From the NCBI GenBank assembly GCA_035765675.1, contig DASTXC010000040.1, positions 19,369 through 83,368 of the forward strand: a stretch of DNA of 64,000 nt, given 5' to 3'. Positions 5,993 to 20,604 of the stretch are shown in pieces (position 1 is the first letter of the stretch; each line of letters opens with the position of its first letter). Source of the stretch: Verrucomicrobiia bacterium. Its GTDB lineage: Bacteria > Verrucomicrobiota > Verrucomicrobiia > Limisphaerales > DASXHY01. Under the pieces are notes generated by a model, which saw nothing but the letters and a program-made list of their open reading frames with translations, searched no databases and was not told where the DNA came from. The translations under genes were made by a program, and so were the position numbers.

Positions 5993-7222
5993 ATGAGCCA
6001 TCCCGATTGGTCCCGACTTCGCGCCGATTTTCCCATTCTCAACCAACAGGTTCACGGAAAACCGCTGATTTATTTCGACAACGCCGCCACATCGCAGAAA
6101 CCGCGCGCGGTGATTGAAGCGTTGCAGCGTTACTACGAACGCGACAATGCGAATGTGCATCGCGGCATTCACGAATTGAGCAATCGTTCCACCGCGGCCT
6201 TCGAAGCCGCGCGCGCCCGCACGGCGAAATTCATCAATGCAAAAACGCCGGAGGAAATCGTGTTCGTTCGCGGCACGACGGAAGGCATCAATCTCGTGGC
6301 GAACTCCTGGGGTTATAAAAACCTCAAAGCCGGCGATGTCATCCTGCTCACCGAAATGGAGCATCACAGCAACATCGTTCCCTGGCAGATTCTCGCGGAA
6401 CGCGTCGGCGCGAAGATCGCGTATGTGCCGGTCACCGGCGACGAAGGTTTGCTGGGCTTGAGCAAGCTGGATTCGTTGCTCACGAAAGACGTGAAATTCT
6501 TTTCCATGGTTCACATTTCGAACTCCATGGGAACGGTGAATCCGGTGGCGGAACTTTGCGCCCGCGCGCGCAAACTGGGAATCACGACGCTGGTTGATGG
6601 CGCGCAAAGCGCCGGACACACGCCGGTGGATGTTCAGGCGATCGGTTGCGATTTCTTTGTTTTTTCCGGTCATAAAATTTGCGGGCCGACGGGAATCGGC
6701 GCGCTGTGGGGGCGGCAGGAATTGCTGGACGGCATGCCGCCGTATCAGGGTGGCGGCGAAATGATCCTGACCGTCAGTTATCAAAAAACGGAATTCAAAA
6801 AAGCGCCGCATCGGTTTGAAGCGGGAACGCCGGACATTTCCGGTCCGGTCGGATTGCACGCCGCGATGGATTATCTGGATGGCATCGGCCGCGAGAACAT
6901 CTGGAAACACGATCAGGACCTCGCGAACTACGCTTACGAAAAGTTAGCCGCGCTCGGAAACATCCGGCTCTTTGGCCCGAAGCAGAATCGCGCTGGCCTG
7001 GTTAGTTTTCTGTTGAAGGATGTTCATGCGCACGACGTGGTCACGCTGGCCGATCAGGCGGGCGTGGCGTTGCGCGGCGGACATCATTGCACGCAACCGC
7101 TGATGCACAAACTCGGCGTGGAATCGACGGCGCGCGCGAGCTTCTATTTTTACAACACCCGGGAGGAAGTGGACCGCTTCGTCGAAGTGGTGAAAGAAAT
7201 TCAGAAGTTCTTTGCGTCGTGA
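5993..7222 (+). CDS. sufS: cysteine desulfurase SufS (class V aminotransferase, group II)
   Basis: Motifs FPILNQQVHGKPLIYFDNAATSQKP, PLP-lysine motif FSGHKICGPTGIG and active-site loop RGGHHCTQPLM. The start is placed at ATG 5993. Confidence 0.9.
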   Translation: MSHPDWSRLRADFPILNQQVHGKPLIYFDNAATSQKPRAVIEALQRYYERDNANVHRGIHELSNRSTAAFEAARARTAKFINAKTPEEIVFVRGTTEGINLVANSWGYKNLKAGDVILLTEMEHHSNIVPWQILAERVGAKIAYVPVTGDEGLLGLSKLDSLLTKDVKFFSMVHISNSMGTVNPVAELCARARKLGITTLVDGAQSAGHTPVDVQAIGCDFFVFSGHKICGPTGIGALWGRQELLDGMPPYQGGGEMILTVSYQKTEFKKAPHRFEAGTPDISGPVGLHAAMDYLDGIGRENIWKHDQDLANYAYEKLAALGNIRLFGPKQNRAGLVSFLLKDVHAHDVVTLADQAGVALRGGHHCTQPLMHKLGVESTARASFYFYNTREEVDRFVEVVKEIQKFFAS

Positions 7223-7264
7223 AGCGGCCCTCCGGCTTTGCCGGAAGTCGCTGACAGTCCAGAC

Positions 7265-7527
7265 ATGAAACCGATTTCGGTTCAGGATGCACAGGGGCAA
7301 TTGAAAAGACTGATCGCTGAAGCTTATCGCGGGGAAATCATCGTTCTGGCAGATGGTAACAAACAGGTCACGTTGAACCCGGGAATTGCAATTGATCTGG
7401 AAGAGGACAGTTCGAACTGGAAGCTGAACTGCTAATTACTGCCAAAGGCCCTTTCGCATCTTTTGAAGGTCGCGAACTTCAGGAAATCGCGGATCGCGCG
7501 TTGCAGATACATCGTGACCAGCGGTAA
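7265..7527 (+). pseudogene. frameshifted antitoxin-like gene (Phd/YefM-style N-terminus)
   Basis: In frame 2, MKPISVQDAQGQLKRLIAEAYRGEIIVLADGNKQVTLNP...DLEEDS stops at 7433-7435. The sequence continues sensibly only in frame 1 from about 7408 (QFELEAELLITAKGPFASFEGRELQEIADRALQIHRDQR, stop 7525-7527). Confidence 0.45.
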
Positions 7528-7529
7528 AG

Positions 7530-7723
7530 ATGATACTTCCGCTGCGACGCTCGGAATATTTCAAGATCGACTTTACCAGCACTCGCGCTGGTACCTGGAG
7601 AACGCCAGCGAGACGACCGCCAGCGAGTTCTTAAACGCAGTGAGGGAAACATTGCGACTGCTGGGTTCTCTGGCACTAAAGTCCCATTACCGACCTGCGC
7701 CAAATATTCTACGGTCAGCTTTC
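7530..7723 (+). pseudogene. frameshifted and 3'-truncated ParE/RelE-family toxin remnant
   Basis: ATG 7530 lies 2 nt after the antitoxin stop. In frame 0, MILPLRRSEYFKIDFTS runs into a stop at 7632. The ParE-like continuation (WYLENASETTASEFLNAVRETLRLLGS) is in frame 2 and runs straight into the next gene without the C-terminal half of a toxin. Confidence 0.45.
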
Positions 7724-8365
7724 ATGAAGCGTAACCAGGTCAACTCTTTGAGGCATTGTGCTGCCATCCTCCTGTGTGGATTGATCTTTTTCGGCGCACA
7801 TAGAAATGCAGATGCCCAGGGTGTAATTCTTGATCCCGTTGCTGTCCTGCAAACCGGAAATGGCGAAACGCTTCATTCCGCTTTGCAAACCCTTTTCATT
7901 CCGCAATCGGCTTTCCCTCAGCAGATTCAAATCGCCGTCGGCTTTTCCACCGACGAAATCTTTGCGCCGGAAACTTTCTTTGATTCCGTCACGCTGACGT
8001 TGCAGGACGAGCTTTCGTCGCTGGCCGCCATTTTTTTCACGATGGATTGTTCCGGCGTATTTTGGGCGCCGCTGCCGGATGGCGGAATTCCGGTCGATGC
8101 GAATGCCATTGGCCGCGAATCGATTGAATTTCCAGACCTGTCGCCGGCTTACGCGCATCAGGTTGCCTATTATCTCACGCTGCCTATTCCGGCGTCGCTC
8201 ACCGGACGCCAACTGAATTTGTATCTCGATCTGTTCGACAACCAGAACGCCACGGGATCGCTGGCCTGGATGAGCCAGGCCACCCGTGTGCCCGAACCGG
8301 GCACGGCCGCTCTGGTTGCGCTTGGAACAGTGCTGTTCGCTCTTCGTCGGAAATCAAAACTTTGA
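7724..8365 (+). CDS. secreted PEP-CTERM sorting-domain protein
   Basis: Internal ATG 7724 gives a signal peptide (MKRNQVNSLRHCAAILLCGLIFFGAHRNADA). The C-terminus VPEPGTAALVALGTVLFALRRKSKL is a textbook PEP-CTERM motif (PEP, TM helix, basic tail). Confidence 0.8.
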   Translation: MKRNQVNSLRHCAAILLCGLIFFGAHRNADAQGVILDPVAVLQTGNGETLHSALQTLFIPQSAFPQQIQIAVGFSTDEIFAPETFFDSVTLTLQDELSSLAAIFFTMDCSGVFWAPLPDGGIPVDANAIGRESIEFPDLSPAYAHQVAYYLTLPIPASLTGRQLNLYLDLFDNQNATGSLAWMSQATRVPEPGTAALVALGTVLFALRRKSKL

Positions 8366-8391
8366 TTCGTCTTCAACCTGCTTTGTCTCCC

Positions 8392-11300
8392 ATGACTATT
8401 GCCAATGCTCCATTTCGTCGCGTCTGGCCGTTGATGCTGCTCAGCGTGCTGCTGTTTCAAAGCGTTCGTGCCGAGGAAAAAACGTTGAATGTCGGCGGCG
8501 TTCCCATCGTGTTGCAGGACGTCACCGCGCAGGCGGAAGTGTTTTATTCCGCCATGCGTTTCAATCGCGCCTCAAACGTGTGGAATGTCGAAGCCTCCAT
8601 CCGCAACAAAAGTCAATCCGCGCTGCCCACACCGCTGGTCCTTTACATTGAATCCGCCAGCGGAACGAGCGGTGTGCTGCACGCCGACGGTCATGACGGT
8701 GCGAATCCCTATTTCAATTTCGCGAATTCCGTTTCTGGAATCACCTTGGCCGCCGGCGAATCCAGCGCGCCACGCACCTTGACTCTGGCTTTCGGCACGG
8801 GAACACCGCAGTTGGTCACACGCGTTTTTGCACCGGGAATTCCCAGCGCCGCCGCGATTGCGTTCGGACGTTCGCTGAACGAAGCGGGCCAGCCGTTGCC
8901 GGATGTGACGGTCACCGAAGTGGGGCCGAACGGTGAATCGACGAATATCACCGGCCACGCATCCGGAATCGTCACGCTTGGCCAGGGAACCGGCGCGCAT
9001 CTCTGGAAATTTTCCAAACCGGGTTATCTGCCGGTCTGGCGCGCTTTGACGCTGAACACCAACGGCGTTGCGACTGTGCCTTCGCCACGTCTCACTCCGC
9101 GCGCGACCGATATTTTTCCGCTGACGCCTGTGGGCGGCGGCAGTTTTTCGAATCAAACGATTTCGCTGCAATTCGGTCCCGGCGCAGTTCTCAGCGACAC
9201 GACGGCCACGATCACGATGCTGAATGCCCAGACGCTGCCCGCGTTGTTGCCGATGGGCTGGAGTCCGTTGGGCGCGTTCTGGATGGAAATCGCGAGTCCG
9301 GTTCAACAGCCCGGAACGCTCGCAATCGCGCCAGACGACAGAATCGCATTTTCGGAAACCGCCTCGCTGATTCGCTGGAACGAAACAGCCGCGCGCTGGG
9401 AAGTTGTCGCCAGTCAATCCGGCCTCGGAACCAACGCCTTGAGTTTTGCGCTTCCTGGCGCTGGCGCTTACGCGCTGGTCGTTCCCGATGAAGGAATTTT
9501 TGCGCCGCCGGCTGCAACGGTCGGTCAACCACTCGCCGCGACCGCAAACGCGTTCACCAACTTCGCCGCGCTGACAGCGTTTGGAACCGTGACGCCGTCG
9601 CTGAGTCCGGCCAGTCCCATTGCCGATCTCGTGACGGCGCAGGCTGAAGTGACGTTCACCGCCCTGTCCGGCGCGTTGCCGAGCGGCCTGGTGTTGCCCA
9701 CGGAAGTTTCGGAAAACTACGAACTCACCGATCACACGCATCGCCTGCCGCCGACTTACGAAAATCACATTGTGGCTTATCAGCGTCCCGCCGATGACAA
9801 TGCGTCCACGCTCGTGGCGACGTTTCCTCTGCGGCCGATCTGGCTGCTGGGCGCGGATGAACTCGCGCAGGCCAATATTCATGTGGACGTACTCCCGCCC
9901 GTTTCGTTTCCCGGCGGCGTGCTGGATCAGAACGGCGGACAGATCGCGCTCGGGCCGGTCCGCATTTTGTCCGGTGTCAGCAATCTGACTTCGGCATACG
10001 CCATTCGCCTTCAGCTTTTGAACCGAACGAATTTCTCTTCGCTCGCCAGCAACATTGTGGTCGCGTTTGAAATCAGCGCCGGCGAATTGCCCTCGGGCAA
10101 ACGTCTTTCCGCTCAATTCACGCCTCAGGCAACGAACAGCATTTTTGTCCTCGCCCGCGTGCTGTCGCGCAACGGACTTTACGGGCTGGAACCGATTGAA
10201 CGTTTTGCGAGCAATGCGTCCGGCGCGCTCAGCAGTGTTGAACCGCAAACCGGCGAACGGCTTTCGGGGATTACCGGCGCGGGACAATTCCTGTTGATCC
10301 AGATGGGAACGCCGCAGGGACTGGTCAGCGGGATTGCTCGAAACGCTGCGAATCAACCGCTCGAAGGCGCGGCGATTCAGATTCCGCCCTGGCTGACGTT
10401 TTCCGATGCGTTCGGAAAATATCAACTGCTTTCGCCGACCGGCGCGGTGCAGGTCGCCATCACGGATTTGAATTCCGGTGATTCCACGCATCTCGATGTG
10501 GTGTTGAACGATTGGCAGATCGGTGTGGTCGCGGATATCGAAGCCGCGCCGCAACCCCCGCGCGTCGTTTCCGTTTCGCCTGCGCCGGGTGCAACGGGAG
10601 TCAGTCTCGTGACACCGATTACAATTACGTTCAGCGAGCCGATCAATCTCGCCAGCGTTTTGCCGAATGGCATTCAACTCATTGGCGCAAGCAATCAAAT
10701 CGTTCCGACATCGCTGTCCTTCAATCTGAAAGGCACCGTGGCGAATCTGCTGCCTGTGGATCCGCTCGCGCCGACGACGCTTCACACGATTGTGGTTTCC
10801 ACCAACGTCGCGGATTTTACGAATCTGAAACTCACCGGCCAGAACGCATTTTCGTTCACGACCACCAGCGATGCGAACCAGCGCGATCTCGCGGCGCAGG
10901 TCATCAGTTACGAGCCGACGAATGGCTTGATGCGCATTCGCGGAACGCTTGGAATCGCGGAGCCGAACGCGCCGGTGATTCTCGTGAATGACACGACCGG
11001 CTACACCTCAACGGTGCTGGCGAAGGCGGACGGCAGTTTCGACAATTCCATCCCGGCTTCGGAAGATGATCTGCTCAGCGCGGTGCTGGTAAATGGGAAC
11101 GGAACGCGCAATGTGATTCCGGTCAGCCGCCAGATTTTTCGCGATGGCTCCGTCGGTCTGTTCAATGGCGGCGGCACAATTGAAAGCACCAACGCCAACG
11201 GCGTCGTGCAGGTGCTTATCGAGGCGGGTTCCATTCCGGGACGAACGAAATTCAAGATCGACGCGCTGGACATGACGGCGTTGCCCGCCTTCGTAACCAA

Positions 11301-14300
11301 TGTTCCCGCGGGTTCGGCGAAACCGCTGGGCGGTTTGAAAATCAAAATTTCCGGCGACACCCTTCAACAGTCCGTGGACGTTTCGTTTCCGATCAACGTC
11401 GCGGATTTGAATCTGCCGGAAGGCGAAAATCCGACCAACGCAACCTTCTGTCTGGCGATTCCGCACGAAGACGTTGCGGACGGAATCACGAACACCATTT
11501 ATGAAATCGTGGACCGCATGCATTTCGAGGAAGGCAAGCTGGTCACGCATTCGCCGCCGTTCTTCGGATTGTTGCCCGCGTTGAATCTCGACCTGCTCAC
11601 CGTGCCGCTGTTCATGAGCGTCGGCCAGCAGATGACGATTGCGGGTCGCGTGTATTCCGCGCAACTCGACAACTACGGCAAGCCCATCCCGGGAACGGAA
11701 AAAAATCTTCCGGGCGCGGTCGTGAGTGCAGTTCCACCCGGCGCGCCGCAGGGAATTCCGGGACGTTTGCGTCCGGGCACAATCATGGCCACTGCGGGCG
11801 GAACCAATTCCAGCTACGCCATGATGGTTGTGGTCACCGAAGCCGCACCCGCCGTGGTGACCGCGTCGCATCCGCGTTTTCCGGGAATCGCGCCGGTGGC
11901 CTTTGTTCCCGCGATGAGCCAGGCCGAACGCTTTTCGCTCGGAAACTTTTTCAAACCGGTCGATGTCGTTTTCCCGACGCGCGACGCGCTGGATTTGAGT
12001 TCGCCGACGGTTTTGTTTTCGCATTCGCCGGAACGTCCGGAACCGACCAGTAATGGCGTGGTTCGTATTGTGGCCACGGATACCGCGTCGCGGCCGAGCC
12101 TGACGGTTTCCATTGCGGAAGCGGTTGCGCTGGGCAGTGCAACGAATATTCCCGCAGGTGAAATTGAACTCTCCCTCGCCGGCAGCGAAGACATTGGCGC
12201 TTTCACGCGTCGCGAAAACTGGAACGTGTCCGCGCCCGTCGCCGCGCGTGTTTTGTTGCAGGCGCGCGCCACGGATGATTCTGGAAATGAAGTGGTCAGC
12301 GCGTATCCGATTTTGTTCGGCGGCAGTGAAGTGGTCGTTTCAAATTCAATCCCCGCGCCTGATCCCAATGACAAAACCGGCCCGCGCGTGATTTCGTCGA
12401 TTCCGTCGCGCGGTGGTTTGGGCGCGGCTCCGGGCGAAGCAATTGTGCTGCGTTTCGATGAGCCGATTGATCGCGCCATTTTGCAGGATGCCACGGTGCT
12501 CAGTCTGATGCCGGGAAATCTGCGTCCGGTGTTGCGATTGAGCGAAGACCAAATGGAACTGCGATTGAACTTTGCCGACATGCGTCCGGGCGTGGCCTAC
12601 ACGCTGACTTTGAATTCCGGCGTGCGCGACATTTCTGGAAATCGCCTGGATCAGGATCCGATTGCGGAAGGGAACAACAGTTTCGTTTTGAATTTCACCA
12701 CTGCCGCGCTCACAACCGGCAATCTGCCCAATATTCAATCCGGCGGCGGCGCAATCGTTCGCGGCATCTACGCTTACGTGCTGGATCGCAATACTTCTTC
12801 AAACGCGTCGGTCGGCATTTACGATCTTTCCAATCCAGCCGCGCCGCGCCGCGCCGCGCAATTTCTGCTGGGCGGCGGTTATCCGCGCGATCTCGTTTTG
12901 ATTCCGGATTATTCGTTCAAACGCCGAATCGACGGCCCGGTGTTGAAAAAGGATTTGCTTGCAGTCGTCGGCGGCTATACCGGCGTGGGACGCAGCCAAT
13001 ATCTGCGGTTGATCGATATCAGCGATCCGCTCAATCCTCAGTGGGAAGCGGGGATCACGCTCACGTTAAATCCTGACTCCGTGGTTTCGCGCGTGCAATG
13101 GGCTCCGCCGTATCTCGGTTATCTCGAAAATGGAACGGTGAATTCCATCGGCGTGCTCGATCTGCAAACGCTGATTCTTTTCGAGAACATGACTTCGGCG
13201 GAATACGTCGCGATGCCGGACGCGGGCTATCCAGGCGTCGATGCGAATGGCGATGGCGATTACGTCGATGCCGGTGATGAACTGCCTTTGCCCGCCAGCC
13301 AGCCGGTGGAATTTGCGGGCAAGCTTTTCAGCTTCACGCTGAACGACGCGGATTCGTGGATCAATGATTTCGTTCTGGGTGAACACGGACAATTCGTCGG
13401 CGTCGTCACAGACGCGGGCCATCGCTACGGCGAGAATGGATCGCAGACGAGCGAGATTGCGCCGCCGATGTATCGCACGCTCTACAGTTCGGGAACGTTT
13501 CCCGAAAACGATCTCGCGTCGTATGTGTTCACGAATGCGCGGCCCAAGCGATTGCTGCTGATGTCGGATTTTCCGGTGGTGGACAACGGCCAGACGCGGC
13601 TCGCGCGATTGGCATTGGTTTCCATTCGCATGGACGCGGGACACGAAGACGGAAAACCGAATCGGCTGGTGATTCTCGATGTGACCATTCCGGTCGATCC
13701 GCAGGTCTTTGCGGAAATCTCCATTCCCGAAGCCAATGGCGAATCGATTTATTCCGTGGTTCGTCGCGAAGACGGAATGCTGCTGCTCGCGACCGACAAG
13801 GACGTGTTGATTCTTGATCCTTCGAAGTTCCGTTCGCCGATTGGAACGAATGGTGTTCATCCCGCAATCGTTGGTGTCATTCCCGACGCAGGCAACGCGA
13901 TGCGCACGTTCGACGGAAATCTTGCCGGGCTGAATGTCATCAGCGACGGCGCGAAAAATCAGGTGCTGCTGGGAACGCCGACGCTGGAATTTGTCGCCGC
14001 TCCGACGAACACGCCGTTCATTCCGGCGAATCTCGTCAACAACACGAATCTGCAATCGCTGCTCGGCACCTTCACGCCGGTGAACGATCTCTGGCTATCG
14101 CGCTATCGCGGTGAACCTGGCATCGTGCCGTCCACGATTTCTCCGCCGCTGGGTGTGACGCATTATTACGTGCTGGTTCATGCGCCCGGTTCCGCGGGCG
14201 CGACGATCGATCTCGCGCTGGAAAGTTTGAACTGGTCCGGCCAGCCGTTGCGCAAACAGGGATTCCTGTTCCCGCCGGTGAACGCCTTCAGCAGCAGCGC

Positions 14301-17300
14301 GCTCGCGGCATTGGAACAAACTCCTTCCGCTGAAGAAGCGCCGGTGCGTTCGAGCAAAGCCTGGCGGCTGTCGAGCAATCCAGGAAGTCCGTTCTATAAT
14401 CTGTATCTCTCGCGTCCGTTCGCTTTGGTCGGCGAAGAAATGTCGAAGGACGAACTCGCGACCGTTCAATCGGAACTCGACCGCGACATTTTCTGGAGTG
14501 GCGCGTTTCTGCGCGCGAGTTTTGATCCGTCGTTGAAGGACAATCCGGTGCTTGGAAAATTCGTCGGCAGAATCAGCCCCGAAGACAGCGTGCATTATCC
14601 TGGCGTCGAAGCGCTCGCGTATTCCTATCCCGCGGATTATATCCAATCGCCCAATCCCGGACCGATCATCGGCGGCGTGACGCTGATCGATGCCTTGGGC
14701 GCAATCGGCGCGCACAACGGCGAGTTGCGTTCGGAAACGGTGGACATGGCGTTGCCGGGACGACGGTTGCCGATTGAGTTTCGCCGGTTCAATGGCGCGC
14801 AGGGCATTTATGACGGACCGTTCGGGCGCGGCTGGGATTTCAATTTCAACCAGCGCATTGTCGAGCTTTCAACCCGAGGTTTCGCGCCGGATTCAAAATT
14901 ACCGCAGGTGATCCGGGATTCCGCTGAGGACAGTGAAATCGCCGCGACGAAAGACCTGTTGTTCTACACCGGCGCGGGCCGCGTCGTGATCTGGAAATAC
15001 TCCGGAACCAATGCGCCGCCGGAAGTCGCCAGTGATCCGCTCGTGACGCAGGTGTTGAAATGGACGAATCAGGTGGCGCGTTATTATCTGCCGCCGGCGG
15101 GCGCGTTCAATCTGATGTTCAAATTCAAGGATGGCCGTTACGCGCGGCTCGAACCGGATGGCACGCAGTTCTGGTACAACTCCGCCGGACGGCTCACGAA
15201 AATTTACGATCGTTACGACAAGAATTCGCTGGAGATGGTTTACAACGCGCGCGGCGAACTGATTCGCATTTACGACGAACTGCATCGCGCGCTGGACATC
15301 GGCTGGTGGCGTTTGCCGACCGATCCGTTGCGGCGTCCGGGCATTGATGAAGCCACGTTGCGCCCGAACATCGCGGGAAAAATCTGCAGGCTGCTCGATT
15401 ATTCGAATCGCGATGTTTTGTTCTATTACACCGAAGACGGTTTGCTGGATCGCCGCGAAGGACCGTTGGTGGAAACGGCGGCGCTGAATGGTTTCACCGG
15501 CCGCGGCATCACGCGCTACACCTACAGCAATTCCAGCCAGCCGGATCGTTCTGGAAAATCGCTCACGGGAATCATTGCCGGGGACAACATTGGCACGCCG
15601 CTGATTGCCGCCACTGATCTCGGCGCGCGTGGTCGCGACACGGTCAGCAAACTCAAGCTTGCGACCGGTGACGTGAAAATCGAACTCGGCCAGGCGAACA
15701 CCGCGAAAGCGTTGAGCGCTGGTAATGGCGCGATGAAGGTCACAAACCCGGATCAGTCCACCACCCGTTACAAGCTCGATAAATTCGGCCGGCCTTTGGA
15801 AATCGGATTGGCAGCGCAAAACGGCGACGAGCAAAAAACCGCGAAGGAATATTATCCAAACGGTTTGCTGAAATCGATTACGCATCCGGAAGGCAATCGC
15901 ATCGAATACGTTTACGATTCCGAAAATCCGTCGCTGCGCGCCCGCGCCAACGTGATCAGGATCACGAAATATCCCGGACCGCGCGGCGGGCCGGTGCTGC
16001 AGGCGACCAGCGAATTCGATGACTGGTACAATCTGCCCGCGGGAATCAAAACCGATTTCAACACGAACTCCGCCACGATCACACTGCGCCTGGATCATCG
16101 CGACACCGAACGCGTCACCAAAGCGGGATTGTTCGAAACGTTCACCGCGAATGAATTCGGCCAGATGGAACGCCACGTTTCCATTGATGGCATTGTGCGG
16201 CAATGGACTTACACGCCGGATGGATTTGTGAAGACGCTTTCGATCGGCGACGTCACGACGACCTACGGCTACGCGCCGGCGACCGGTGCGCGCAGTGATT
16301 TCACGTTGCGCGGACTGGCGTCGTCCGAAACCGACGGACGCAATCTCACGACGCAATTTATCTACGACGAACGCAATCAGCTCGTGCGCTCAATTCGCGC
16401 CGGACGCGAGACGAGTTATGCGTACGATGAAACCGGAAACATTCTGGAATTGCGCACGCAAGTGGATGGCGAGCGCACGTTGATCGAGCAGCGCACTTAC
16501 GATCAGCTCGGTTTTATGCGCACGAAAACCTTGAAAGATGTCGAGGTCAATGGCGTGCCGACCGACATCTTGACTACGTTTGAACCGGACGAAATGCATC
16601 GCGTCAAACGCGCGACGTTCCCCGGCGGTGAAGTGCATGAATTGCAATACAACCACGTCGGTCAGCTCACGAATTACGTGATCGGCGGAACGTATCGCGA
16701 AAGTTACACCTACGACGCAAACGGCAATCGCCTCACCACGACAATTGGCGGCGCGACGGAAACCCATGTCTTCGACGGTCACGATCGACTGATTCAAATC
16801 ATTACTCCGAGCGGCGCAACGAACTTCATTGCTTACGATGGCAACAACAACATCGTTGGAAAAAAATCCATTGATGCAGATGGAACGGTTCTGGCCGAAA
16901 TGTCCGCGGAGTTTGATGAGCTTAACCGGCCCTTCCACGAAACGCGTTTGCGCGATTCGGGAGTGTCCACGGCGAATTACGATTACAACACGGCGGATCG
17001 CATTGTGACCTTCACCGACGCGCTCGGTGCGCAGGTGAAAACGTATTACGACAATGTGGGTCGCATCTGGAAAGAGGAACTGCCGACGCGCACGACCGAA
17101 ACGGAATTCGACGGCAACGGCAATGTGCATCGACGCAAAACGACTGAGAGCGGACGCGTTTATTCCGAGGAATTCGATTACAACGAATTCGATCAACTCA
17201 CGGAAGCGCGCGACAATCTCGGCAATGCCACGCGTTACACGCTGGGCTTTGACGGACGCGCGAAGGAGATTCGCGACCGCGAAGGATTTTCAATCACGAA

Positions 17301-20300
17301 CCAGTTCACGATCCTGGGAGAAGCGGCGCGCACGTTGGACGCCAATGGTGTCATCACCGATTTTCAACGTTCGACCAATCGTCAGATCAGCCGGATCAGC
17401 GATGCCGCGGATCATGCGTTGCGCACGGAATTCGACACGATGAATCGTGTGCGGCGCGTGATTCTTCCGGATGCGGCGGAGACGACTTACAGCAACTTCG
17501 ACGCGCTGAATTCGCCTCGCAGCATTTCCATGCCGCGCGGGATTCAGATCACGGCGGCGTACAATTCCGAAGGGCTGCTGACCAATCGCGTTTTCACCAG
17601 TCCGATGGGAACACGCACGGAAACTTACGTGTATGACGGGTTGCAACGATTGAAGTCGGTGACCGATCCGTCCGGTTCCGTGAACTTCACGTTCGACAAG
17701 TTCGGATTCACGAAAACGTTCGGTCACGAATATCAGTTCCGCTTGCCGGTGAATGGTTCCAGCACGCTCGCGTTCAGTGTGGAACAAAATGCAGATGCGG
17801 GTGGATTCCGTTCTTCAATTATTTATGCGAACGCCGCGCTGACGGTGGAGAATCGTCGCGACAACACCGGTCGGTTGCTCGCGCTGATTCCCAGCACCGG
17901 CGAAGCGATCATCAAGACGAACGAATATGTCGGTGACACTTTGGTGGCGACCCGAGAAATGGGAAATGGCCGCGTGCGAATGGAAGCGGAATTCGACGCG
18001 CTGAAGCGTCCGACCGCGCGCCGGTTTGTGAATGCCGCCGGTCGCGATCTCGTGGATGTGCGTTACGCGTATGACAAAAACGGTGCGCAAATAGCGCGGC
18101 AATTTGTGCATCGCGCCGGACGTGCGGACTTCTTCCAATACGATCCGGGCTATCGTTTGAAACGCGCCGATCTCGGAGTTCATCCGTCGCTCGGCGGCGC
18201 AGATGCCAATCGTGTGTTCCCCGGATTTTCTGTTCCGGCGGGTCTCGAAGGGAACTGGGCTGCGGGTGCCTTCGCGCGCGAAATGAATTATTCCGATACC
18301 GACGTGTTGGGTGGAGTTGCGACGTCGAATCCGGATTCGCTGGAATTGCCACCGCTCGCGTCCAGCTTCGGAACGCCGGATGATCTTCTGTTCGTCTCAT
18401 CGCTCGACGGTTTCACGCGTCAACGTGATGAAGTGGGAAATATCACAGTGACGCGGCTCTACATGCGCTTGCCGGGAAGCGCGATTCCAGTCGCGGTGGC
18501 AGCTACGAACACGTTCAACGAATTGAATCAACTCGTCCGGATCGAACGCGCCGACGGTGTGGTGATTGAGAACGAATACGATCCGAGCGGTTTGCGATTC
18601 CGCCGCAAAGTCACCGGCAATCCTGCGCGCTGCGTTCCGTCGGACACGGCTTTTCTGTATGACGGCGGCAATCTGATCGAAGAACGTGATCTGCAAAATG
18701 GTGGAGCAGTGATCGCGCGTTATTTCTACGGTGACGATGGCGATGAACTGATCGCCGGCGATCTCGCGGATGGAAATGGAACTTTGGCGCGGCATTACTT
18801 TCTGAGTGACGTCGTTCGTTCCATTCTCGGCGTGACCGATGCCAATGGAAATCTGGTGGAACGCGTGCGTTACGATGCGTGGGGCCAGCCGGTGATTGAA
18901 TCCGCGGACAATGTCGCACCGCAGATTGCGCGCGTTTCGCTGGAAACCAATTCGCTGTTGATCGAGTTCACTGAATCCGTTTTGCCTGCGTTCAACGACG
19001 CGGTCGATCCCAATGGATTCGTTACCAGCCTGCGCGATGCGAATTCATTGTTCGAAGTGCGCGTGAATGGTTCGTCCGTTTCGGGCACGGTGCGCTTCGA
19101 AGAAAATCTTCCGGGAACATTGTTCGGCAGCGCGTATCGCTTCATTCCTTCCGAAACCTTGAGCGGCACCGCGCAATTGACGGTTGTGGGCGGCGCGGTC
19201 CAGGACGATTTCAACAACACCAATCTTACTCTCACGGTTAATCTCGATCTCAATCCCGCTTCGCCTGGCGTGGTGTTCACCGGCGCGGCTTCGGGCAGCA
19301 CAGCCGCAACGCAGCTTGGCCGCAGCACAATTGGATCGCCGTTCCTGTTTCAGGGACAGGTGTTTGATTACGACAGTGGTTTGGTTTATTGCCGCGCGCG
19401 TTTCTACGATCCGGCCAGCGCCATGTTCCTTCAGCGCGATCCGGGCGGTTACGTCGATGGCGTGAATCAGTACGCGGGCTTCGCGAATAATCCGATCAGC
19501 CTGCGCGATCCGACCGGCCACGCGACCCCAGAAGGCATGGATCAAGGTGAAGCGCGCGAGCAACACAGCATCAGCGGCTATCTCGTGAACACGATGCGCG
19601 ATTCGATCAACCGCGCGCTCGATCTCGGCACGGCCACAGCCCAGGGCATTGATCTGTTGAACTCCGGCAATCCGGGATCGCAGGGCGCATTGGACGCGAT
19701 ACGCGGCGCGGATTTGATTATTTCCGACGCGCAGGTGGCCGCGGGAGCGTTTGGCACATTGAAGTTTGCGATGACGTCGTCGGTGAATCTCGCTCGGCGC
19801 GCGGCTGGGCTCTTTCAGAAATTCCGCAGCTCACCGCAGATTCCAGCGGCGGTGCGCGATCATTTGATCAAGTCGGGTCTGACGCAGGTGGAGATTGACG
19901 CCATTGTTCCCGCGATGAAGGAGCATGGCATCACGCGTTTGAGCATTCGCAGCTTCAATGAGAAACGATTCGCGCGCCAGACGGGTGTGAACGCGGGGCT
20001 CCCGCAGAAGCCGATGCACATCAAAGAGAAAACCGGCTTTGATTCCACGATCACGCGCGACGGGGTGACGTATGTTTCCGACGCGGACATTCTGCACGTT
20101 GAAATTCAAGGGCGTCCGGCCACGGTGAAAGAAGTTCAGAAATTCACCGCTTCGGCGAATCGCAATTATTCCAAGCTGTGGAATCAGCGCGGCCTCGGCA
20201 CGCTCGGTGTCCCCGCCAATCCGCCGTTCCAGCACGGGTCGCATCTCAGCATGGCGCAGATGTATGACAAGGGCGGCAAGGTCAATGGCGCGTATATCCG

Positions 20301-20604: not shown

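Follow-up and report, generated by a model that had tools for sequence, protein, structure and literature searches.

Rhs cocoons that bear a beta-propeller are known from three settings: the Tc toxins, the teneurins together with their bacterial counterparts, and the mosquito protein SGS1. The subject of this work is a giant Rhs gene of the same general build, which lies on the plus strand at 8392-20604 of a 64,000-nucleotide stretch of DNA from a Verrucomicrobiia bacterium (contig DASTXC010000040.1 of assembly GCA_035765675.1, positions 19,369 to 83,368). We call that whole stretch the window. Among the described systems, the bacterial teneurin-like proteins (TLPs) are exported by Sec and carry Big, TTR and TIP domains, an FN-plug, a six-bladed NHL propeller and a YD shell (PMC13018210). 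Their toxic C-terminus of about 15 kDa is cleaved, and an immunity gene lies downstream (PMC13018210). A cryo-electron microscopy structure and toxicity assays were published in February 2026; TLPs were found in 139 genomes from six phyla, Verrucomicrobiota not among them (PMC13018210). An earlier review does mention TLP-like proteins in Verrucomicrobia (PMC6425310). In the teneurins as in the bacterial TLPs the FN-plug stands ahead of the six-bladed NHL propeller (PMC13018210, PMC6425310). From Verrucomicrobia, the 2012 survey of polymorphic toxins lists an RHS toxin of Pedosphaera parvula with a PVC-metallopeptidase C-terminus (PMC3482391).

We think it likely that the giant Rhs protein of the window is a polymorphic toxin of the Rhs "cocoon" kind, exported through Sec and then displayed on the surface or released, and that it represents a large and mostly verrucomicrobial family. 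It appears to be a separate, undescribed branch that is built like the teneurins and the Tc toxins and is probably not a direct relative of them. An earlier reading made from the letters of this DNA (the sequence-only reading) had called bacterial proteins of this type poorly characterised. That is outdated for the class, now that the TLPs have been described (PMC13018210), but it holds for the verrucomicrobial giant-Rhs clade, which is itself undescribed. The parts of the protein, in order, are these:

8392..8472, plus strand: Sec-type signal peptide, residues 1-27, predicted from the translation to be cleaved between VRA and EE
8473..12705, plus strand: beta-sandwich stalk of ~1,400 residues, with two CarboxypepD_reg/TTR-like and two Big_5 domains (Pfam)
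12742..14001, plus strand: predicted seven-bladed beta-propeller, Kelch/LVIVD-like, residues 1451-1870 (AlphaFold2, Foldseek, weak LVIVD match)
14002..14712, plus strand: alpha/beta "mid" domain, residues 1871-2107 (237 residues), confidently modelled, between the propeller and the shell
14713..18888, plus strand: DUF6531 (residues 2108-2157) and then the YD-repeat shell to residue 3499, ~1,400 residues (Pfam, TIGR01643)
18889..19329, plus strand: core insert of ~146 residues, residues 3500-3646, between YDAWGQP (residue 3494) and PFLFQGQ (residue 3650)
19330..19521, plus strand: Rhs-associated core (TIGR03696) with the aspartyl-protease residues R3668/R3670, D3683 and D3706
19522..20601, plus strand: C-terminal cargo of 360 residues, a Gly-rich helical part (about residues 3711-3825) and a putative enzyme of ~245 residues

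Sequence profiles alone do not prove the propeller, since LVIVD appears in Pfam as a single weak match (residues 1523-1549, 23 bits). The fold is seen in an AlphaFold2 model of residues 1440-2500, made from a 20-sequence family alignment, with a predicted local distance difference test score (pLDDT) of 89.1 and a predicted template-modelling score (pTM) of 0.84. By the secondary structure of this model residues 1451-1870 form 28 strands, that is, seven groups of four. The YD strands begin from residue 2108, and the whole propeller precedes DUF6531 and the earliest YD repeats. When the model was searched against the PDB with Foldseek, the bacterial TLP 9ifo came first by a narrow margin (E 1e-13), followed by the RhsA effector 7q97 of a type VI secretion system (T6SS; 4e-13), the fly and mouse teneurins (about 1e-12), TcdB2-TccC3 (1.6e-10) and SGS1 (2.7e-10), each with a probability of 1.0. 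Seven-bladed propellers are also among the matches, namely Sec12 (4h5j, template-modelling score 0.69) and WDR91 (0.59), both scores being target-normalised. One blade resembles in sequence the designed Kelch-like propeller SAKe6, and hidden Markov models of single blades match one another at three "hhhDhsdP" sites. Searched against the PDB, a profile spanning the propeller and mid region matched nothing, including no teneurin, TLP or TcB chain, and NHL and TEN_NHL were not reported for the giant Rhs in the Pfam scans. As modelled, the propeller is real, seven-bladed and Kelch/LVIVD-like, not NHL.

In a loop of blade 3, DANGDGDYVD(AGDELPLP), at 13240-13269 on the plus strand (residues 1617-1626), the majority of the Gly, Asp and Pro residues do not vary within the family (G176, D178, G183, D184, P193 and P195 in alignment numbering). 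In sequence this loop looks like the calcium-binding motif Dx[DN]xDG.

The mid domain, which is conserved across the family and has no sequence match in Pfam, NCBIfam or the PDB, is a candidate plug or seal of the shell. The shell itself is recognised by RHS_repeat (Pfam, E 3e-32) and YD_repeat_2x TIGR01643 (NCBIfam, E 2.5e-19), and the core by Rhs_assc_core TIGR03696 at residues 3647-3710 (NCBIfam, E 1.8e-17), where the match begins only at profile position 13. The core has kept its protease residues. The DPxG-x19-DPxG motif and the Arg are intact here and in relatives, and the two Asp are 23 residues apart, which is the spacing of the catalytic pair D651/D674 of TccC3, a protein whose D651A mutant is an entry among the Foldseek matches. 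In BiTLP, the TLP of Bacillus inaquosorum, the density ends after the residue that follows DPxG (PMC13018210), so by analogy cleavage is predicted after H3710, between RDPTGH and the next A, and would free a domain of 360 residues. The insert that precedes this core is present in the window and in the related loci L003, L004, L008 and L010, and absent in L009. Aligned with the protein's own Big_5 domains by hhalign it gives 68% and 53%, against less than 0.3% for controls, a similarity that is weak and partial; judged by sequence it is probably an Ig-like, Big_5-like domain. There is a precedent in SGS1, where Ig-fold receptor domains are inserted in the Rhs shell sequence (PMC9935623).

Past the RDPxG motif the family diverges sharply. 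Over the final 100 residues of the core, members are 50-78% identical to the window protein; in the C-terminus the figure drops to a background of 19-32%, two close orthologs being the exceptions. The 50 C-termini compared represent 35 unrelated types; their lengths run from 185 to 449 residues, with the median at 278. Those that can be recognised are an MsddA-like deaminase, a PT-HINT with a Tox-SHH nuclease, a C39-like peptidase and an eCIS_core metallopeptidase, and several others have HExxH motifs when inspected by eye. Abrupt swapping of the C-terminus after a cleavage motif is, to judge by these alignments, the signature of a polymorphic toxin (cf. PMC3482391). Most of the 35 types, including that of the window, match no known family, which makes the verrucomicrobial Rhs clade a rich source of novel folds for toxins or enzymes.

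The cargo type of the window is the commonest (10 of the 50 C-termini) and is moderately conserved. In an alignment of 11 members its ~245-residue part has E, R, R, K-x6-K (K3873 and K3880 in the numbering of the full protein), DxD (D3897 and D3899) and H (H3948) unchanged throughout. The cargo found no match in Pfam and NCBIfam, both as a single sequence and as the 11 members, or in the PDB with phmmer and with profiles; its profile found nothing beyond two fragments in a set of 5.8 billion proteins. The order K-x6-K...DxD...H raised the idea of a nucleotidyl cyclase like EF, CyaA and ExoY, which we rejected. The Lys pair of those cyclases is about 120 residues from the DxD, here the spacing is 17 residues, and no cyclase profile matches. 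The stretch "KTG-x12-SDxD" can be read as pol-beta nucleotidyltransferase-like, and we offer this as a candidate lead.

The N-terminal sequence points to export through Sec. The gene is one unbroken open reading frame on the plus strand from 8362 (TTG) or 8392 (ATG) to the stop at 20604, and it encodes 4,070 residues counted from the ATG. Its N-terminus, MTIANAPFRRVWPLMLLSVLLFQSVRA followed by EE, shows by eye a basic n-region, a hydrophobic core of 12 residues and a V-R-A cleavage site. Most full-length relatives have a comparable signal-peptide-like start, and several have a lipobox. Tat export, which an "FRRV" motif had brought to mind, was rejected: relatives do not keep the RR, and the h-region is highly hydrophobic. 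Within the stalk Pfam places CarboxypepD_reg at residues 162-229, with a weaker second copy at ~645-685, and Big_5 at 721-824 and ~1330-1438; the stretches 28-155 and 825-1325 have no Pfam assignment and no NCBIfam match. The family alignment shows conservation along the whole length of the stalk.

Much of this had been anticipated. The giant Rhs gene that the sequence-only reading described is real, and every element it listed is present about where it was placed. The Sec-type signal peptide is borne out by the N-terminal sequence, and the stalk of CarboxypepD_reg and SbsA-type Ig-like domains by the Pfam matches to CarboxypepD_reg and Big_5. The propeller had been put at ~12730-14005, which is essentially the 12742..14001 of AlphaFold2; its presence upstream of the YD shell, on which that reading had staked itself, was checked by structure prediction and Foldseek, and the propeller was found. 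The proposed start of the toxin at ~19522 fits the motif RDPTGH and the A after it.

The family is large. An exhaustive HMMER search with residues 1301-2110 as the query gave 793 representative clusters (50% identity level) below an E-value of 1e-3, 182 of them below 1e-30, against 4 relatives found by a word-indexed homolog search. Most members are 3,900-4,300 residues long and some reach 5,400, with the propeller match at the same position, and in family alignments the conservation runs from the first domain to the core. Species-representative genomes contain 10 loci, eight of them labelled Verrucomicrobia or Verrucomicrobiota (one subdivision 3, one Limisphaerales). Another, L003, is on a metagenome-assembled chromosome. 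The best match is 72% identical; the accession with the 72% ortholog is OW818681.1. A locus in a metagenome-assembled genome (MAG) of Myxococcota is a partial match of only 98 residues. L008 (CAZNOE010000011.1) has the full set of neighbouring genes described below and is labelled as a Bifidobacteriaceae MAG, while the other taxon-labelled full-length loci are all Verrucomicrobiota; this contig is probably mis-binned. P0001, which among metagenomic homologs is closest in the propeller region (58% identity), belongs to L001, where the orthologous giant gene at 6180-17643 is split into many short open reading frames, either as a pseudogene or through frameshifts in a long-read assembly.

The giant Rhs gene lies between two other genes for secreted proteins:

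7721..8365, plus strand: small secreted PEP-CTERM protein (TIGR02595 at 22.1 bits against a cutoff of 16; Pfam PEP-CTERM borderline)
20615..35029, plus strand: second giant gene (giant 2), ~4,800 residues, with a signal peptide, CarboxypepD_reg, Big_5 and TSP3_bac

This module of PEP-CTERM gene, Rhs gene and giant 2 is conserved in related loci, and the outer flanks are not. By tblastn, a homolog of the PEP-CTERM protein is directly upstream of the giant Rhs in L001, L003, L004, L007, L008, L009 and L010, which suggests that the Rhs family is linked with the exosortase surface-sorting system. Giant 2 runs from a signal peptide through ~1,200 unmatched residues, about ten CarboxypepD_reg domains, three Big_5 domains and TSP3_bac to 820 unmatched, beta-helix-like residues at its C-terminus; the Pfam model TTR_TEN1-4 is reported for it. 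It starts 0-170 nucleotides past the Rhs stop in L002, L003, L004, L008, L010 and L014. Where giant 2 starts is ambiguous: in both the window and L004, ~100 in-frame codons stand ahead of the hydrophobic core. Going by synteny, the PEP-CTERM protein and giant 2 are probably partners of the Rhs protein for surface display or target adhesion.

Two candidates for an immunity gene in the window were rejected. The PEP-CTERM protein is not a cognate immunity protein, because it is conserved across different toxin types. The other is a 261-residue open reading frame antisense to the cargo (19831-20616, minus strand), whose codon boundaries fall together with those of the sense strand. Orthologs have similar antisense frames, but neither frame nor extent is conserved, and we regard the 261-residue frame as an artefact of codon complements in GC-rich DNA. 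In L013 a 188-residue open reading frame with no family match (7846-8412) begins 13 nucleotides past the member with the MsddA-like deaminase, and giant 2 is missing. That frame is a candidate immunity protein, and the organisation of the operon thus varies within the family. L009 has ~1.8 kb between Rhs and giant 2 (17620-19700), where degenerate pieces of a giant-2 N-terminus are found; the minus strand of this gap carries a PIN-domain (VapC-like) frame and a small antitoxin-like one.

The 64-kb window contains no PAAR, VgrG, Hcp or CdiB/TpsB gene and no gene of a type V (T5SS) or type VII (T7SS) secretion system, which bears out the sequence-only reading on the absence of T6SS, CdiB-type and T7SS elements. 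The flanks of the 10 related loci have no T6SS gene either, and the only conserved neighbours there are the PEP-CTERM protein and giant 2. The other genes of the window are housekeeping ones: DprA, Suf, RF3, PPK, Lut, an MFS transporter with an HlyD-type partner, and others.

Put together, these parts suggest how such a protein might work. The signal peptide would thread the unfolded chain through SecYEG. Judging from their domain types, the TTR-like and Ig-like sandwiches, ~1,400 residues in all, would then form a stalk. The modelled propeller, the alpha/beta domain and DUF6531 may pack on the N-terminal mouth of the shell and close it, a sealing role that we propose by analogy with Rhs, TLP and Tc proteins. 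At the opposite end the Rhs core would be the closure, and its two Asp would cut after RDPTGH to leave the 360-residue cargo free yet enclosed. The propeller, and probably the core insert too, would be outward binding modules whose contact with a target helps trigger release. The cargo would act through its enzyme-like domain of ~245 residues, and one may speculate that the Gly-rich helical segment aids its passage through a membrane. For much of this there is a precedent in the Sec-dependent teneurin-like Rhs toxins, which have encapsulated, cleaved, toxic C-terminal domains (PMC13018210).

Several considerations weigh against reading the protein as an exported cocoon toxin. A protein of 430 kDa would have to cross the outer membrane of a diderm. 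The route of export, the cleavage, the encapsulation, the display on the surface, the binding by the propeller and insert and the toxicity of the cargo are all steps that we infer. How the propeller, mid domain and shell sit relative to one another is read from the summary scores of the model. For the cargo of the window, searches of Pfam, NCBIfam and the PDB bring up neither a known toxin fold nor a toxin family. In the window and in L002, L003, L004, L008, L010 and L014 no open reading frame of the size of an immunity gene separates the Rhs stop from giant 2, whereas nearly all TLP, Rhs and contact-dependent inhibition loci have an immunity gene. The obvious options here are that the targets are not kin or that immunity is encoded elsewhere.

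A bolder idea, which we regard as rather doubtful, is that the PEP-CTERM protein, the Rhs protein and giant 2 are a self-contained toxin-delivery system linked to Sec and exosortase, with no known secretion machine and no cognate immunity. If this were true, giant 2 would provide surface display, target adhesion or translocation, and the 30-40-kDa cargos would be aimed at non-self, for example at protists or unrelated prey bacteria. It would also be a third independently assembled "propeller plus cocoon", beside the Tc toxins and the teneurin-like proteins.

Of the alternatives to an undescribed branch of cocoon toxins, the one that survives best is that the giant Rhs is a bona fide bacterial TLP, directly related to the ancestor of the teneurins and folded in their canonical way, with FN-plug, NHL propeller and YD shell as one superfold. 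We consider this improbable. The likeness to BiTLP (9ifo/9pt5) is considerable: a single Sec-exported chain has Big and TTR-like adhesion domains at its N-terminus, a propeller beside and ahead of the YD shell, a DPxG...DPxG aspartyl autoprotease and a variable C-terminus, predicted here to be cleaved, encapsulated and toxic as in the TLPs, all with no dedicated secretion machine (PMC13018210). That 9ifo is the top Foldseek match also favours this view, as do weak or faint precomputed TEN_YD-shell matches in relatives and the report of TLP-like proteins from Verrucomicrobia already cited. When the family profile is searched against the PDB, it does reach the TLP (1.5e-37) and the teneurins (about 1e-14), but it scores the shells of T6SS-type Rhs proteins higher (8h8b, 4e-54). 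The library of Pfam has teneurin-specific models, yet none was reported for the giant Rhs, and the propeller is of another type, with seven Kelch/LVIVD-like blades against the six NHL blades of a TLP. No FN-plug or TIP was detected before the propeller; the Pfam scans have an ordinary Big_5 (residues ~1330-1438) in that place, and the plug-like segments, DUF6531 and the 237-residue mid domain, come after the propeller, unlike the teneurin order. The proportions differ as well. The shell has ~1,400 residues against ~880, the whole protein 4,070 against ~2,240, and the C-termini of the verrucomicrobial family 280-360 (360 in the window) against about 15 kDa. Finally, the window protein has a core insert, conserved giant and PEP-CTERM partners and no downstream immunity gene, and its phylum, Verrucomicrobiota, is outside the six of the TLPs (PMC13018210).

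The eukaryotic teneurins (6fb3, 8r50) share with the giant Rhs one or more TTR-like sandwiches, a propeller, a YD shell and a C-terminal domain derived from a toxin. They differ in the FN-plug before an NHL propeller, in the loss of the protease motif, in being type II membrane proteins and in a C-terminus (ABD and Tox-GHH) that exits the shell, and in sequence they are less related to the window shell than bacterial Rhs proteins are. The sequence-only reading had described the order of domains as teneurin-like. It was right that a propeller stands just before a very large YD shell, but no FN-plug was detected ahead of it and its seven blades are not NHL. The value of domain order alone as evidence for the ancestry of the teneurins is tempered by this, because the shared architecture comes without shared FN-plug or NHL modules. 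The verrucomicrobial family also suggests that "propeller plus cocoon" was assembled more than once.

The next alternative sees the giant Rhs as the BC component of a Tc-like (ABC) toxin: TcB and TcC would be fused in it, and its propeller would dock on giant 2, the A-component translocator. We think there is only a slim chance of this. Like TcB-TcC and its natural fusions (4o9x, 4igl), the protein joins a propeller to a large cocoon, has the Asp spacing of 23 and carries a cargo of ~30-40 kDa, near the size of the hypervariable regions of TcC (276-295 residues, PMC6425310). TcdB2-TccC3 is among the Foldseek matches, giant 2 is strictly conserved and nearly translationally coupled, and the absence of an immunity gene is as in Tc toxins against eukaryotes. 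However, the family profile matches TcB-TcC through the core only, as it does SGS1, which is a core-level sequence match. No SpvB, TcdB_toxin_midN/midC or integrin-like propeller signature was reported in the Pfam scans of the giant Rhs; its propeller is of another type and stands outside the shell sequence, and the protein begins with a signal peptide and a 1,400-residue stalk. Domain and PDB searches found no TcA-type translocator among giant 2 and the other open reading frames of the window; giant 2 has no TcA-type Pfam domain and no PDB similarity, and resembles an adhesin in which TTR-like and Ig-like sandwiches lead to an end of beta-helix-like repeats. Some family members (L013) do without giant 2. 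The likeness to TcB-TcC fusions that the sequence-only reading saw is only partly borne out: TcdB mid domains were not reported, there is no TcA-like partner and the sequence match is confined to the core.

Could the giant Rhs be mainly a structural or adhesive surface protein, whose C-terminal domain in the window is no toxin but has, say, an enzymatic role at the surface or a role in signalling? The partners are adhesin-like, the teneurins show that such scaffolds can be put to adhesive use (PMC13018210), and neither a toxin family nor an immunity gene is found for the window C-terminus, which is also the commonest and moderately conserved type. We judge this very unlikely all the same, given an intact cleavage motif, a sharp break in identity at that motif which is typical of the exchange of toxin cassettes, and deaminase and HINT plus HNH nuclease toxins at the same position in other members. 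As for a cargo effector of a T6SS or other specialised system encoded elsewhere in the genome, there is next to no chance of it. In YD shell and DUF6531 the protein comes nearest to the Rhs effectors associated with a T6SS, but T6SS substrates lack a cleavable Sec signal peptide and this protein has one. A PAAR, prePAAR, VgrG-binding or clade domain is missing, the shell is preceded by 2,100 residues of extracellular-type sandwiches and propeller, and neither the 64 kb nor the flanks of the 10 related loci contain a T6SS gene.

We therefore class the giant Rhs as a Sec-dependent, propeller-bearing Rhs cocoon toxin, neither a TLP or teneurin nor a fused TcB-TcC. It is not placed with the TLPs and teneurins because it fails on the FN-plug before the propeller and on the NHL type, and its shell scores nearer to T6SS-type Rhs. 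It does not fit a TcB-TcC because it lacks the SpvB and TcdB mid domains and a TcA partner, and it does not fit a T6SS effector because it has a signal peptide and no match to PAAR. The T6SS Rhs effectors (RhsP 8h8b, RhsA 7q97, Tse15 8uy4, Tre23-Rhs 7pq5) have the closest shell and core by profile and a segment of the DUF6531 type. They differ in having no signal peptide, stalk or propeller, in their PAAR, VgrG or clade domains, in their length of about 1,400-1,600 residues and in their adjacent immunity genes. The WapA-type toxins of Gram-positive bacteria and the "T2SS/Sec-dependent RHS" class (T2SS, type II secretion system; PMC3482391) share the signal peptide, the RHS repeats and a variable C-terminal toxin; WapA differs in that its repeats bind the cell wall, a propeller is lacking and an immunity gene lies next to it. 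Neither the architecture nor the operon of the window is described in the 2012 survey, though the eCIS_core match of one C-terminus in the verrucomicrobial family can be compared with its PVC-metallopeptidase toxin of Pedosphaera parvula (PMC3482391).

Mosquito SGS1 (8fjp; PMC9935623), a Rhs cocoon of bacterial derivation, also has more than 3,000 residues, a seven-bladed propeller and inserted Ig-fold receptor domains. It differs in being eukaryotic, in a second, nine-bladed propeller that extends the chamber, in a helical membrane-active cargo and in the positions of its inserts. With no adjacent immunity gene and with fixed PEP-CTERM and giant 2 partners, the verrucomicrobial proteins raise the question of how display, delivery and choice of target are managed in diderms with no help from a T6SS or T5SS. 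Beside the Tc toxins, the teneurins with their bacterial counterparts and SGS1, this family is a fourth lineage of propeller-bearing Rhs cocoons, abundant in metagenomes, with another type and position of propeller, a larger shell and much larger cargos.

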